Source: Candidatus Xenobia bacterium (GTDB lineage: Bacteria; Vulcanimicrobiota; Xenobia; Xenobiales; QWHO01). Taken from it: a stretch of 23,944 bases of DNA. Made by a program: the position numbers. Shown here piece after piece: positions 12,001 to 18,000 of the stretch (its first letter is position 1; each line of letters begins with the position of its first letter). The DNA lies in contig BTUM01000107.1 in assembly GCA_045863235.1 (NCBI GenBank), positions 1 to 23,944 of the forward strand, read 5' to 3'.

Positions 12001-15000
12001 CTGATTGAAAGAACTTCTCCAACATGGTCAAGAGGTGTCTACCTGTCGAGCGTCCCGAATCCGGGGTCGAGCCGTGCCTGGCCGACCTGGTCTGGCAGCG
12101 TTGTCTGGCCGGGGCTCGACGGGTTTGGCTGCGCTTCGTCTGGAAGGGCAGTCGCAGCTACCTCACGGTGCAAGACGACGGACCGGCTTTGCCCCGCAAT
12201 GAGCCCCTGGCCCTGTGGGGAGGCGAGGACCTGAGCTGGACCGGGCGGGTTCTGGTTCAGACGCGCTCCGGGCCCAGCACGCGCAACTGGGGCTGGCAGC
12301 TTGACCCGGTGGGCGGTCCCTGGCTGGAGCTCAAGGGGCTGGCTTCCGAATCACGCCAGCGGTTACAAGAGCGCTGGTTTGAGGTGGCTCGTGGCAATCT
12401 GGTGTTGTGTGAAGACCTGGCTGGATGGCCGGAGATCTCGGGTCGCCAGCGCGATCCTCGACGCTTCTCCGAGCGCGTTCGTCAGATCGGGCAATTTTTG
12501 AGTCAGGTTTTGCATCGTCTGCTGGAAGATCGGCTCGAGCTGATTCTGGGTGGCCACCGCGTGGTGGCCGACGACCCACTGCGCGGGCGGCGTTTTGCCG
12601 CCGTCCACCGCCTGGGGCGAAAGGTCATCCCAACGGCTCAGGGCGAGTTCGTGGCGCGCCTGGTGCAACTTGATCCGCGTCCGGGTCAGAGCGTCCCCGA
12701 GGGTCTCTTTGCCTATCAGGATGGTCGCTTGCTGGTGAACGGGCAGTCGCTGGGAGGTCCGACCGGAGCCTGTGTGGTGCTCGAACTGCCCGCTGAGGGA
12801 GCTGCCGTCGATTGCCTGCGGACTGGCCAGGACTGGCTTCCCGGCGAAGTCAGGGCTGTGCTCGAACGCCTGATTCGCTCGCTGCAACGACGGGCAATCG
12901 TTCGCCCGGCTCCGCGTCTGGCGGTGCGCGGGCTGGCCCGCCGTGGCGAGAAAAAGCCCCAGCATCCATGGGCTTTGCGCCTGTGGAGTTCGGCTCGATT
13001 TCAGTCCCAGTTCTTGCCCGAGGACGCGCCCTTTCGGGGCAGTCTGGCGGGGTTGCTCGACCTTCTGGCCGAGCGCCAGTGGACGGTGGACGAGCTGGTG
13101 GCCCGCTTGCGTCAGCCGCGACCTTATCTGATGCAACAGCTTGACCGACTTTACCGTATGTTGAGCTGCGAAGACCGCACTGCCCTGGCGCTCAGCCCTG
13201 ATGGCCGCCTGGTCGTGCTCCTGCCGCACGTCGCCGATCAGCTGTGTGCCCTCGACATGGAGCGAGTCGAGGCCACCACTGCCATGGGCGATCCGGTAGT
13301 CCTCGAGCTGCCCGTGCGCCTGAACGCGCAGGAACGGTTGGTGCTCGAGAATCTGGCTCGTCACGGCACCATGAGCGAGGCGGAGCTTTCGCGCGTGATC
13401 GGGACCCGCCGGGTGGGAGGGCTGCTCGAATCGCTCTCCAGCCGGCTCGATCGGGCCGGTTGGAAGGCGCTGGTGCCAGAAGGAGAAGGCCCGAACGGTC
13501 GCATCTACTCGTTGCGCCGCTCGTCTTGAGAGCGTAGCTCCTTTGACGCCACAGGGGGTTCTAATGTGCTCGCACTTTGGTTTTGCACATTCTCTGACGA
13601 ACGCGCTGGAACGCAGTTTCGGCGCGTTGTAAAGTGCAAGACCAAAGGCCTTGCACTTTAGCGGGGCTCTACCCTGGCCCCTCCCTCGGAGTAGAAGCCG
13701 GCAATGAACTCCTGGGCCACCAGCTGTCGGTAGCCCGAACGCGCCAGCGCCCAGGGGAGACACGAGCCGTGGGCGCAGAGCCATTTTTCGACCTCGCGCG
13801 AGGTTTCGGGGCCCAGGGAATGGATCAGGGTGACCGCCTTCTCGGGGCCCGTGAGGTAGGGCGACTCGGTGTTGAGGGAGAGCAGCTGCTGGGCCGTCCG
13901 CTGGGGATAGATCCGGGCCACCTCCTGAAAACGGGTCACCGGGTCTTTCTCGTTGAGCCAGCGGTATCGCAGGAAACTGGCCACCGAGGAGGGAGAGCTG
14001 TGAGCCAGGCGCTGGGTTTCGGCCAGCGCGATCTCGCCGGGCATCTGCAGCTCCTCGCGCAGAAAGACCTGCTTCAAGCTGGCCAGAAACTCGCCGGCCA
14101 CGCGCTCACGGATCTGGTTGTGGTTGGGGTCGGAGGGCTTTTCGAGCAGTTGGTATGCGGTCAACTTGCCTACTTCAGCGATGACCTGGCGGCTGCGGGC
14201 CGGCGGAAGACGATTGAGCACCGCCTGGGAAATCAACTCGGCGACCTCGATCGGCAATAGATTCAGCAGCAGGGCCAGACGGCGTCGGGGGCCCAGAGCC
14301 GGCTCGGTGCGCGAGCCCTCGCGCAAGAACTGCTGCAGCCATTGCACGAACCGACGCTGGTTGCTCCAGTAGAGGCGCTGACCTTGCAGCCGTTCCCACA
14401 GGCTCTTGACGCGATCGGGCGCCAGCGAGCGAACGCGCACGAATCCCTTGGCCAGCTCCACCGACTCGTCCGGAGTCAGTTGCTCCATGACGTTGTTAAT
14501 GTCCCAGTGGTGGATCCGATGCAGCACCGCCAGGGCGGCCGCCACTGGAATGTCGGCGGTCGCGATCACCGGACCGGCATACACCGAGTTGCCCTGGAGA
14601 GCCAGTTGGGTCAGGGTTTCCGGGTCACGCTCCTCGGTGTCGCCGATCAGCTTGAGGAGGTGGCCGATCTCGCCGATCGAGCCTTTGGCCCGCCACAGCT
14701 TGTGCAGGAACGATTTCAGCTCGTCCATGCGGATGATCTCGGGTATGACCGACTTGATGCCGGTGGATTCGACCTGCTTGGCCCGACTCACCAGGTTGTA
14801 GACCTCCTGCGTTTCCAGCAGAGCGGGGCCGTGCACGTTGAGCAACCGGTTCAGGTGCCAGGCCAGCACATCGGCCGGCCAGAGGACCAGGCACCCCAGA
14901 TCTTCCGCCCGGCGAGCGCGCCGCGGGTGGATCCAGTAGCTCGGAAGCCCGTGCGAGTAGTCGATGCTACGCTCCGGGTCGAGCCTCTCGAGCAAGGTCG

Positions 15001-18000
15001 AGGAGCCCAGCGCCAGACGACCGGCAAGCTCCAGTCGACCGCGCGCCACTTCGCGACCACGAATCTTGACGCGGTACTCGTCTTCAGCCAGGTCAGAGCA
15101 TTTGAGGACCGGGATCTCGGGCGAGACAAGCCCCAGCTCCTTGAGACGAGCCAGCAGGGCTTTGAAATTCGCGTAGCGAGCTTTGATCTGGGGGGTCACG
15201 ACGGCATAGCCCGCCTCAGCCATCTCGACGCAGATCGGGTCGAGACGCACCGGGGGCACCTGGGCCAGCGGCGGGGTCGGGGAGGGGAGGGCGGCCAGGG
15301 GCCGAGGCTCGGGCGGCTGGGGCTCGGCCCGGCGCTCTTCAGCGACCGGCTGGTTGCGACCCCGGCGTTCGCGGCGGGGGCTCTTGCCCGTGAGCGCCAG
15401 CGGGATGCCGGCCAGTCCGGCTGCCATGCCGGCCAGCCCCAGGCCCAGGAAAAGCCAGCCAGGGGAAACCCGGGCTCGGGAGGCCCGACGGCGCTCGCGA
15501 TCGATCGGAAGGCCGCTGAGCCACAGTTGCTGCATGACGGCAGCCACCGTGCCCGGTGAAGTTCGGGCCAACTGGTCCACTGCGGCCAGAGCTGCCGCGT
15601 AGGTCCGGCCGGAGGTGGCCGAAGTGGCCGCATGGTCGAGGAACTCAGCCAGAACCCGGGCCCGTTCCTGGGGACTGGCGGCCGAGGACAGCTCCTTGAG
15701 CTGGGAGGTGACCGCCTGGCTCTGCTCGACCCCGAGCTCTTTGAACAGCTTGGCGGCCGCCTCGGGGGTCAAAGCCATCAGCACGATGGCGATTTTCTGG
15801 AAGTTGGAGTCGAGGTTGGCGGGGTGCATTCGTGGCTGTAATTCGACTCCCGCGCATTCCAGCCTTCTGTTCGAAGGATCTTCCCCGGGTGGAAGCGGAA
15901 GCAGACTCAATTATGAGCCTGCTGACCGATGAACGTTTCCGCCAGGAGATGCTGGAGCTTTCCAACGACCTCCTCACTTTGTTTGCCGCCAAGTATCCCC
16001 GGCTTTTGAATGCCTTTCAAGATCTTCCCGAGGAGAAACTGATCGAGCTTCTCATTGAGCTTTGCGACGTGTTCGATCTTTATCGCGACCTGACCGCCCA
16101 TGTGGCCCAGGCCTACAAGGAGCACCGCCGCCGAACCGGCTCGCTGGAGGACCGGGACTGGCCCGAGAACTAGCAGGCTGGTGCAAAACCGGTTGTGGTG
16201 TCGAAGCTCCGCCACCACAAGACGTTGTGTAGGGCATTAGCCTGCTACACAATCTGTTGAGCGCGCACCCGGAAAACCGTGTCGGCGCCGCGCGTTGATC
16301 TCGAGCGGCGTGCAACGATCACAGGGCCCGGTCGAGCGGAAGGGCGAAGCCGGCCGCATTGCGGTGTCCCCCGCCGCCGTAGAGAGCAGCGACGGCCGAC
16401 ACGTCGAACTCTCCGATCGAGCGAAGCGACCAGGCTTGCTGCTCCTTCTGGTTGGCATAGTAGACCCCGGCGAAGGGTGCCTCGGGATAGAGTCGGCACA
16501 GCTCATCGCCGATCTCGCTCTGCAAGAGGCACGAGTTCACGGTAGGAATATCGTGCTCTCCGACCCGAGTCCAGCGAGTCCGGCTGACGGCTCGCTCGAT
16601 CAGGCTCTGCTTGTAGCGGAGAATGGCCCGTCCTTCGCTGGCCAGCTCGGCCACGGACAGCCGCTGCCAGAGGGCAAAGTCCATCGGATAGCCGTGCAAG
16701 GCGGCGGAGACCGCGCGGCTATCGGGCAAGGCAAATCGCCACAGGTCCTGATCCTCCACGTAAGCCAACAGCTCGGGCAGCTTCTGAAGCGGCTGGAAGT
16801 ACTCCCAGGCCAGTCGGGCCCCCGACTTGTCCAGATCGAATCGGGCAAAGGGGAGGTCGGCCAGGTCGGCCTGGGCCGACTTGTGATGGTCGAGCACCAG
16901 CAAACTCTGACAGCGTTCCTGCAGTTCGAGCAGGGTGGCTCTGGCGTAGCTGAAGTCGAGGATAGCCACATGGGCTTCGGCAGGGAGCTCGGGAGGAGGC
17001 TCGCCGTGTCGCACCGGGAGGTACCTGGCTTGCTCACCCAGCACCGTCCAGGCCGCGAAGGCCGCTCCAAAGCCGTCGGCGCAGTGAGCGTGATAGAGAA
17101 CGTGGGTGATGGGGCCCATGAAGCCCCTGATGAGACGAAAGTGTTACGGTTCCTTCCTTCTTGGTATTATATTGACAAAGATGAATATTGTGATATAGTG
17201 ATTTCAAGATGAAGACGGCAACCCCCCTGTCTGATGACAAGCTCAACTACGCTGCCGAGATGCTCCGCTTGATGGGTCACGCCGTCCGGCTGCGCATCAT
17301 CGAGTTGCTCGAGCAGCACGGCGAGCTTCCAGCCGGTGCCTTTCACCAGCGTCTCGACGAGCCCCAACCGACCGTATCCCAGCATTTGAACAAGATGAGG
17401 GCTCTCGGGCTGTTGCGAGCTCGTCGACAGGCGGGTCAGGTCTTCTACTCCGTCGCCCAGCCACAGCTATTCAGGCTGCTTCAGTGCGTCCGCGACTGTG
17501 AATTGTAAGGAGGAACTTCATGACATCCCCGGAGCTCATCGAGCTGATCAAAGACAATCCTCGCGTCCGATTGCTGGACGTGCGCACTCCCGGAGAATTC
17601 GAGAGCGCTCATATCGAAGGGGCCTATAACCTGCCTCTTGACCAGTTGGGCGAGCACCAGCGTGAGCTGGCCCGCGTCAACGACCCGGTGGTGCTGATCT
17701 GCCAGTCGGGAGGTCGCGCTCGCCAGGCAGAGCAACTGTTGAGTCAGGCTGGCCTTGGTCAGCTCAAGCTGCTGGAAGGGGGCATGAATGCTTGGACGGC
17801 GGCCGGCAACGCCGTTCACCGGGGGGGGCGGCCTCGGCTCAGTCTCGAGCGCCAGGTGCGCATCATCGCCGGCTTGCTGGTGACCCTCTTCAGTCTGCTG
17901 GCCTGGAAAGTCAGCCCGCTGTTCGCCCTGGTTCCTGCGGGCATTGGCCTGGGCCTCACCTACGCCGGCCTGACCAACTTCTGCGGCATGGCCATGATCC

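Follow-up and report, generated by a model that had tools for sequence, protein, structure and literature searches.

In Salmonella FlhA, the residues E351, W354 and D356, together with R391, K392 and K393, have been described as a linker-to-D1 basic patch, and D456, F459 and T490 as the chaperone dimple (PMC5916509). FliG_N and FliF-C have been reported to co-fold (PMC8956890), C domains of the FlhB type, including that of HrcU, to function in trans (PMC3040844), and the basal body of Buchnera, in which export genes are kept and fliC, motA and motB are lost, has been read as a repurposed exporter (PMC8109811). A description of detached FlhA-C genes was not found in the literature that we searched. 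The present study concerns such a gene, g06800, in a window of 23,944 nucleotides (the whole stretch of DNA analysed) from a genome of a Candidatus Xenobia bacterium (Vulcanimicrobiota), an uncultured wastewater organism in which genes for swimming were not found. The assembly comprises 166 contigs with a completeness of 97.6% and a contamination of 2.6%, and its contigs and those of relatives were searched in six frames with the FHIPEP profile.

This search returned one full-length FlhA (contig C27) and five C-domain-only genes above the cut-off, namely g00344, g00602, g06100, g06779 and g06800, exactly as the genome-wide survey's note had claimed; a match on contig C24 (E 2.7e-4, below the cut-off) was set aside as chance. 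Neither FHIPEP positions 1-300 nor a local transmembrane profile matched any of the five. The full-length FlhA gave 7 hydropathy peaks, one fewer than the 8 claimed, and the counts given for the paralogues (3 weak peaks for g06800 and 0-1 for each of the rest) were recovered; the label "soluble" is doubtful for g06800. D1-D4 are complete in g06100, g00602 and g06779. The FHIPEP span of about 310-656 assigned to all five does not extend to g06800, the match of which (residues 163-408, E 1e-24, Pfam) covers profile positions 308-546 only, with 0/99 columns of D4 aligned, or to g00344, in which D2 is missing (2/49 columns aligned). Nor is g00344 an FlhA-C domain alone: an FlhB C-terminal domain in front of it had been missed, making it an FlhB-C::FlhA-C fusion whose FlhB part spans Bac_export_2 positions of about 240-335 only, without the FlhB membrane domain. 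The placement of FliG_N before the FlhA-C domain in g06800 and C-terminal to it in g06779 was seen again with Pfam, and the FliG_N-FHIPEP combination was reproduced in six homologues with 59-98% identity. Of the FliG domains, FliG_N alone was over the cut-off in g06800 and g06779 and FliG_C was not found; neither protein has the N-M-C chain of FliG.

Regarding the architecture of g06800 (Table 1), the reading frame is open throughout, and we use "GF" for its repeated module, a pair of FliG_N and a FliF-tail-like helix. Over model residues 1-67, the predicted structure matched the FliG_N chains 8umd_B (Z 7.7), 5tdy_D (6.6) and 5wuj_B (6.6), and an HMM built from five true FliF tails placed g06800 third among 7,175 predicted genes (E 9.3e-5), with a reciprocal match to the FliF tail (E 0.0064). 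A six-helix model of the GF module reached a pLDDT of 75.6; its Foldseek E-values (0.6-2.1) all lay above the Foldseek threshold, and helices 5-6 were covered by none of the structural matches, so that their seat in the FliF groove is putative. The segment at residues 123-146, with a Kyte-Doolittle peak of 1.87, Arg-rich stretches on both sides, and W125, G129-G134 and A136-G141 invariant in 7/7 sequences, is likely to be a membrane anchor. The C-terminal repeats are related to sequence in the C-terminal region of g06779 as well as to proteins from four other genomes (G090, G040, G102 and G108). A full-length AlphaFold model from seven sequences (pLDDT 40.7) was set aside, and a small protein on contig C106 that appeared GF-like by eye was not recovered by profile.

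Table 1. Features of g06800 and its divergent neighbour, in positions of the window.
Feature	Position	Strand	Description
g06800, 723 aa	13658..15829	-	GF module, hydrophobic anchor, FlhA-C (D1-D3), more GF repeats
FliG_N domain, residues 10-74	15608..15802	-	Pfam E 1.6e-13; model matches
FliF C-terminal-tail-like helix, residues 84-105	15515..15580	-	HMM, reciprocal match, model
Gly-rich hydrophobic segment, residues 123-146	15392..15463	-	possible membrane anchor, inferred
FlhA-C D1, D2, D3, residues about 190-412	14594..15262	-	D4 missing; ring/dimple residues replaced
C-terminal FliG_N/FliF-tail repeats, residues about 424-712	13694..14560	-	profile and hydropathy
Clearest C-terminal repeat unit, residues 513-628	13946..14293	-	
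Divergent 86-aa ORF	15913..16173	+	no Pfam family

The range of g06800 is one genus, its architecture is identical in 4/4 genus-mates, and its dN/dS against four orthologues (0.034-0.159) shows that it is under purifying selection. The fragmentation and contamination of the assembly, together with long branches in the tree described below, might prompt the view that the paralogues are decaying fragments, mis-assemblies or binning contamination; this is scarcely credible and already largely refuted by frames open without stops, by the shared architecture, by the low dN/dS (0.03-0.16) and by clades that are old and well supported. The divergent 86-aa ORF is the sole neighbour retained at all orthologous loci examined, and the other neighbours are unrelated. 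In RNA contigs from four runs of three studies, coverage of g06800 was patchy and its depth about as low as that of its flanks, and these runs therefore give no demonstration of transcription.

The apparatus from which these genes appear to derive keeps export gate, ATPase complex, MS/C ring, proximal and distal rod and FliK genes. Flagellin, MotA_N, FlgD and FlgI were not found in the genome; at 97.6% completeness single misses are possible, but the joint absence of all is unlikely by chance. Likewise not found were FliS, which is a late chaperone, the clients of FliS, the hook-filament junction and the cap, and eight late or motor proteins of the relative G060 had no match. The MotB of that relative had one weak match (4.6e-5), which we take to be an OmpA-type domain, and the sole MotA_ExbB match, on contig C90, is ExbB within an exbB-exbD-tonB operon. 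Two Arg residues of the motility FliG of G060, presumably the torque residues, are replaced in 5/5 operon FliG proteins. The flgB-to-flhA operon recurs phylum-wide, apart from the motility locus of some relatives; 35/37 flagellin-positive genomes list at least two full-length FlhA and 61/68 flagellin-negative ones list one, and MotA_N was present in 25 of 121 genomes, each of which belongs to the 38 with flagellin. Judged by gene content, the survey's flagellar-type apparatus is thus flagellum-derived and is not a motility flagellum. Native FlhA-C is far closer to flagellar FlhA (3mix, E 2.4e-102) than to the best SctV match (2e-49), which points to a separate exaptation. The operon ends adjoining an 81-aa protein that has no Pfam match; its gene is multi-copy, and HrpA_pilin occurs on 23-24% of the members of its Atlas neighbours (0.91 and 0.90), a protein language model lead that makes it a pilin-like candidate. 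No secretin was found in the operon, and three secretin matches lie on other contigs.

With respect to residues of known function, the four D3 charges (E563, R568, E592 and R595) are kept in 40/41 typical full-length FlhA and, judging by motif, would correspond to R535/R564 of the EscV ring interface. All four are present in g06100, g00602, g00344 and g06779 and none in g06800, and at least three in all 14 proteins of the g06100 class, which also retains R391 (14/14) with acidic residues at 392/393. R391/K392/K393, F459, T490 and the linker motif are all replaced in g06800, with K/A/L in the linker-to-D1 patch and D/H/W in the place of D456/F459/T490; the canonical dimple is thus absent (F459H/T490W), as it is in g00344, and is kept in part in g06100. 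The suggestion that the paralogues compete with or extend the docking ring is therefore compatible with the four that keep the D3 charges, but not with g06800, and replacement of the ring is unlikely for any of them because the genome retains an intact full-length FlhA of high conservation (mean identity 83% within 21 sequences). When g06100 and native FlhA-C were modelled together as a complex, the prediction scored 0.07 and supports neither side, and an Atlas search with the N-terminal domain of g06100 gave no usable match. Soluble decoys that do not themselves dock on the gate but keep secretion off by titrating FliJ, chaperones or substrates would accord with the partial dimple of g06100 and with the weak binding of chaperone-client complexes by monomeric FlhA-C/SctV-C (bioRxiv 10.1101/2020.11.20.391094); considering that FliS and its clients were not found in the genome, that two paralogues have no canonical dimple, and that ring charges would be superfluous for decoys, this is improbable.

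Fusions of the g00344 type form a class found in 23 genomes of 12 families; the NPTH autocleavage motif occurs in 0/23, the four D3 charges are complete in 20/23, and the same membrane gene lies downstream in 17/23 loci. This recurrent partner, recurrent neighbours of g06100 (10-12 loci) and the spare FliF, FliF_C, FliG-like, FlgE/G-like, FliK-like and FlhX genes of the genome, which include the extra FliF paralogue and the FliF_C-only gene that the survey had rightly listed, might be taken for a second, degenerate assembly apart from the main gate, with soluble FlhA-C rings, the extra FliF, FliF_C-only protein, FliG2, one additional rod-like protein and the membrane protein encoded next to g00344. 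We regard this as quite unlikely because a second FliP, FliR or FliI was not found in the genome, which would make export impossible, and because the ranges differ, g06800 being confined to its genus and the FlhB-C fusion spread over 12 families.

Elsewhere, FlhA-C is also joined to TPR, ankyrin, HTH, zinc-finger, CTP-synthase-like, LRR, VWA, zinc-ribbon, DUF and other domains, and single records carry the names Acidobacteriota and Desulfovibrionaceae; the domain can thus travel without the secretion system. Copy numbers in relatives broadly agreed with those given earlier (2 FHIPEP matches in 14/19 f2 genomes, 3-10 in f3 and 0-3 in f15), although most counts above 9 were uncheckable because usually only 9 candidates per genome were scored. 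Flagellated f15 genomes have 2 matches in 15/16 cases, and copy expansion hence does not accompany motility. In the wider search, 35/44 fusion proteins scored higher against non-motile FlhA, one at 85% identity, and 9/44 were closer to motility FlhA; g06800 and g06779 (28/27% and 23/24%) are hardly closer to one FlhA type than to the other. In the tree, 0/49 detached domains fell inside the motility-FlhA clade (SH-aLRT 100) and two nest among non-motile FlhA. A single origin for 17 detached domains (36 rows in the test) was not rejected (p-AU 0.069). These mixed partners, the records outside the phylum, the dispersed genes with unrelated neighbours, and the conservation of g06800 despite the loss of known functional residues could also be explained if FlhA-C were a general interaction or oligomerisation domain in non-secretion pathways and the FlhB, FliG and FliF pieces were duplication relics of one operon. 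We consider this unlikely, since in 3/5 of the paralogues the fusion partner itself belongs to the secretion machine, the D3 charges are retained across 12 families, and capture from non-motile FlhA appears to have been repeated and recent.

Taken together, we tentatively propose, at a little below an even chance, that the five genes encode adaptors with an accessory role, which would dock either on the export gate or on the basal body of a T3SS derived from a flagellum, the detached domains being mostly closest to the FlhA of the non-motile system. The FlhA-C domain would serve as an address label: g06100, g00602, g00344 and g06779 may associate with FlhA-C ring surfaces and carry to the gate an uncleavable FlhB-C, GF repeats or N-terminal domains, as the TPR, ankyrin, HTH and other domains would be brought in relatives, and these attached domains may tune cargo choice and the timing of export. 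Ring assembly may have been given up by g06800, which would instead be a scaffold tethered to the membrane; by swapping its FliG_N half and its FliF-tail half with FliF and FliG, it would hook into the junction between MS and C ring. The machine itself would export and polymerise the 81-aa pilin-like protein. Against this adaptor role, a FliF-like tail in cis could merely cap FliG_N and leave it inert, all five genes lie away from the secretion operon, and inspection by eye of the regions upstream of 15 genes brought out no promoter motif in common. Since nine membrane domains hold the native nonamer in place, the entry of a soluble copy is hard to picture. A wider formulation, possible but rather doubtful, is an independent, phylum-wide non-motile T3SS that kept the basal body and took on a small Hrp-like pilin in place of flagellin, with FlhA-C as a detachable docking tag fused repeatedly to new domains, plugging regulators and clients into the gate.

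The adaptor reading would provide a separate living case of the change from flagellum to secretion machine with rod and C-ring genes still kept, and a true flagellum is available for side-by-side comparison in some Vulcanimicrobiota genomes; genome-based "motile" calls in this phylum may be wrong where only the flgB-to-flhA operon is present. The natural series of deletions (of the membrane domain, of D2, of D4) and fusions (FlhB-C with FlhA-C, FliG_N with a FliF tail) allows direct tests of whether foreign subunits can enter FlhA-C rings, how FlhB-C is seated against FlhA-C, and how a gate operates without late chaperones.

Compared with the FlhA/SctV nonamer (PDB 3mix, 3a5i, 7amy, 7alw, 7osl), the paralogues share homologous D1-D4 and, in four cases, the D3 charges, but are multi-copy, have no membrane domain, have lost D2 or D4 in two cases, and are fused to other domains. 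The lone FlhB C-terminal domain that we take to be represented by FlhX and HP1575 is similarly a cytoplasmic gate domain encoded alone, and the genome has one; g00344 differs in joining FlhB-C without NPTH to FlhA-C, and an FlhA counterpart of FlhX was not found in the literature searched. The GF module resembles the FliF-C:FliG-N split domain (PDB 5tdy, 5wuj) in its FliG_N fold and FliF-tail-like helix pair, but unites the two halves in a single chain with FliG_N leading, is present as 2-3 repeats, and stands apart from the MS ring and the FliG M/C domains. As in Buchnera, basal body and export genes are retained and flagellin and stator genes are missing; Vulcanimicrobiota are, however, free-living with large genomes, and their system is phylum-wide and in some genomes stands beside a motility flagellum of its own locus; flgD, flgK and flgH are missing here, and the system has a pilin-like gene of its own in several copies as well as an expanded set of paralogues. 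Non-flagellar T3SSs (Myxococcales, Hrp) likewise have an export core without stators or flagellin, and Hrp a counterpart to the small pilin-like candidate subunit, whereas a secretin is missing from the operon described here, and FlgB, FlgC, FliE, FliG, FliM and FlgF/G, which the Myxococcales system is described as lacking (PMC3459982), are kept. Detached FlhA-C domains fused to other machine parts suggest an undescribed way of building and controlling a T3SS.

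A six-frame search of the Candidatus Xenobia genome (G000; 8.36 Mb, 97.6% complete) with FHIPEP, the Pfam family of the FlhA cytoplasmic domain (FlhA-C), recovered one full-length FlhA (contig C27), five C-domain-only genes and one match below the cut-off, which confirms the five detached genes reported in the genome-wide survey's note. The profile span of about 310-656 given there for all five does not hold for g06800, in which the match is shorter (Table) and subdomain D4 is missing, and D2 is deleted in g00344. The 723-aa open frame of g06800 was present at full length in 4/4 genus-mates in our genome sampling and absent from the remaining 116 sampled genomes; its dN/dS of 0.034-0.159 against four orthologues is of the purifying type. 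We regard an artefact as highly improbable. A conserved Gly-rich hydrophobic stretch flanked by Arg clusters may be a membrane anchor of g06800, in which case both sides would be cytoplasmic. Members of two dispersed families of partly palindromic repeats (81 and 45 matches in G000 by blastn) bracket g06800 and its divergent 86-aa neighbor. The same contig encodes a lytic transglycosylase (SLT) with a low-complexity Gln/Met/Gly-rich N-terminus, which could be an exported enzyme, and a coiled-coil protein of 925 aa that contains short tandem repeats and matches no Pfam family.

When the 7,175 predicted genes were ranked with a profile of five genuine FliF tails, g06800 came third (E 9.3e-5), behind the two FliF proteins, with matches at residues 84-105 and 607-628. 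The profile of g06800 residues 6-108, a FliG_N domain plus FliF-tail-like helix pair (GF module), found one more copy within g06800, two within g06779 and others in relatives, and reciprocally retrieved the FliF tail. The structure model from 45 sequences had six helices (pLDDT 75.6), and its best structural matches, confined to residues 1-67, were FliG_N chains from a C-ring and from two FliF-FliG complexes (5tdy and 5wuj). Co-folding of FliG_N with two FliF helices is described in the available part of PMC8956890; each GF unit therefore carries both halves of the MS/C-ring junction, and may either cap itself or swap partners. An assembly of their own, separate from the export machine, is a rather unlikely role for the paralogues. 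In genome G004 (L075, C261), an FlhA-C::GF gene adjoins a GF-only gene.

Regarding the other paralogues, in g06779 FlhA-C is followed by the repeats shared with g06800, and g06100 has an unnamed 95-aa domain in front of a full FlhA-C. A putative lipoprotein gene and an HTH/coiled-coil gene stay adjacent to g06100-class genes in 10-12 loci. An FlhB C-terminal domain opens g00344 (E 0.0043 in G000); the same fusion occurred in 23 of the 30 loci found with this domain, in 12 families, and all ten fusions tried passed the Bac_export_2 cut-off. NPTH is missing in 23/23 of these fusions and D2 is deleted, and one membrane gene directly follows in 17/23 loci (in about 500 bases of flanking sequence). 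Genome G009 has a tandem pair of genes for detached FlhA-C fusions (L052, C208).

Ring and dimple residues of Salmonella were taken from the accessible part of PMC5916509 and transferred using a numbering offset of 16, and D3 interface residues from part of an EscV preprint were mapped by motif. E563, R568, E592 and R595 occur together in 40/41 typical full-length FlhA proteins and are all kept in g06100, g00602, g00344 and g06779; the set is complete in 20/23 FlhB-C fusions and in 7/14 members of the g06100 class, the remainder of which have three. In contrast, g06800 has none of the four (0-1 in its class), R391/K392/K393, F459, T490 and R506 are replaced, and D4 is missing, so that of the five it is the least suited to be a ring subunit. 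The earlier suggestion that detached FlhA-C proteins could compete with, extend or replace the docking ring is thus consistent with four paralogues, but not with g06800. From gene content, domain anatomy, residue retention and selection, all directly observed, we infer, tentatively and as the leading reading at somewhat under even odds, that the five are accessory adaptors of a non-motile export machine: g06100, g00602, g00344 and g06779 would use D3 ring surfaces for docking and g06800 its GF repeats, and these interactions, like the secretion role, stay conditional. That the paralogues act as decoys appears distinctly unlikely.

Fusion partners among 33 further detached proteins scanned included TPR, HTH, C2H2 zinc finger, FliG_N and FlhB-C. 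A wider profile search covered 1.84 billion representatives; the top 150 comprised 66 that contained membrane-domain sequence, 68 that lacked it and had at least 45 residues in front, some being 5' fragments, and 16 short ones. Partners among 40 scanned included TPR, HEAT, ankyrin plus FliG_N, LRR, zinc ribbon, CTP-synthase-like, VWA and DUF4388, and 6/20 clusters were named (three Xenobiia/Eremiobacteraeota, one Acidobacteriota, one partial Desulfovibrionaceae and one unclassified). Detached FlhA-C as a generic interaction domain is a less likely explanation, albeit the best placed of the alternatives. Non-motile FlhA, the operon version, scored higher in 35 of 44 fusions hand-picked as probable true fusions. 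In a quick ML tree (83 rows, 34 near-duplicates being left out of 117), 0/49 detached domains fell inside the motility-FlhA clade, two nested with non-motile FlhA, and the g06100 clade comprised 11 rows (SH-aLRT 100); other placements are unsure because of long branches, and a single origin was not rejected by a test.

The parent operon on C27 reads flgB flgC fliE fliF fliG-like fliG fliH fliI fliJ SLT fliK flgE/G-like fliM fliN fliN fliO fliP fliQ fliQ fliR flhB flhA, and further genes on contig C74 encode a sigma factor, FlgJ rod-binding, FlgG, FlgF, an FlhB-C on its own and a second FliK-like protein. Searches of G000 for flagellin, FlgD, MotA_N and FlgI, in each of which controls matched, found none, and no match was obtained with the FliW, FlgL, FlgK, FlgH, FlgI, FliD, FliS or MotA sequences from G060, an order-mate. 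Judged by its genes, the machine behind the paralogues is no motility flagellum. Two Arg of the motility FliG C domain, which we take to be the torque residues, are replaced in 5/5 operon FliG proteins. The FliG-like gene between fliF and fliG (N and M domains) ends in a FliF-tail-like helix; no counterpart was seen at the corresponding place in G060, G003 or G035.

Across the phylum, FHIPEP was found in 117/121 genomes, flagellin over the cut-off in 38 and MotA_N in 25, all within those 38. Among the matches listed (150 rows, with 281 others outside, so that FlhA counts are lower bounds), at least two full-length FlhA copies occurred in 35/37 flagellin-positive genomes and a single copy in 61/68 flagellin-negative ones, a pattern rather than a statistical test because kin are not independent. 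Extra diverged full-length copies occur in G035 and G050 (L061, L067, L068), which have no flagellin. The operon order is repeated in stretches from G060, G003, G035 and G008 and, in strongly diverged form, in G011, G036 and G071; mean FlhA-C identity is 83% for the operon version (21 sequences) versus 50% for motility FlhA (14 sequences).

An 81-aa protein encoded near flhA matched no Pfam family; further homologues lie on contigs C69, C78, C3, C74 and C12. It occurs in 50/121 genomes (with the G000 query, 0/45 of group f15 and 0/6 of f20), and at most 6 kb from full-length flhA in 33 of the 44 with listed coordinates (one chosen match each). Atlas placed it near clusters with HrpA_pilin on 23-24% of members (scores 0.91 and 0.90, reached by 4-10 in 100 shuffled proteins), and these features give a lead to a Hrp-pilin-like candidate filament subunit. 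The C-terminal domain of a 473-aa Gly/Pro-rich protein resembles it; this protein is possibly a tip, minor pilin or substrate.

Table. Positions of features in g06800, its contig and related loci of G000
Feature	Position	Remark
g06800	C107:13658-15829 (-)	
FliG_N	g06800 residues 10-74	Pfam
FHIPEP	g06800 residues 163-408	Pfam; profile positions 308-546 of 657
Repeat families	C107:13530-13660 and 16171-16300	
SLT protein	C107:3624-4427 (-)	
Coiled-coil protein	C107:20187-22964 (-)	
Three identical 81-aa Q-rich genes	C27:55986-57051 (= L012:5987-7052)	4-5 kb past flhA
473-aa protein	C27:54348-55769	
Second FliG-like gene	C27:75357-76130	
368-aa membrane protein	C1:376521-377627	No Pfam family; follows FlhB-C::FlhA-C gene (g00344)
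Lipoprotein and HTH/coiled-coil genes	C80:29438-31754	

The detached export-gate and basal-body domains are real and amount to a natural toolkit, which would surround an apparently undescribed secretion system of flagellar descent. The full-text literature searched, which covered few subscription papers, described neither stand-alone FlhA-C proteins nor the non-motile system, and the phylum is absent from the main text of PMC13277936. The available part of PMC9259500 describes a related marine family as motile and as having diverse secretion systems; in the table of that paper two FlhA entries are full-length, one next to motA/fliD/flagellin and the other labelled T3SS_sctV 'no_decision', and five more matches span about half of the profile, without comment there. 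The cultured species has neither a flagellin gene nor flagella according to part of PMC9758169. The role of the linker was drawn from the accessible portion of PMC8213127, and the comparisons with known systems rest on the available text of PMC3459982 for Myxo and of PMC8109811 for Buchnera.
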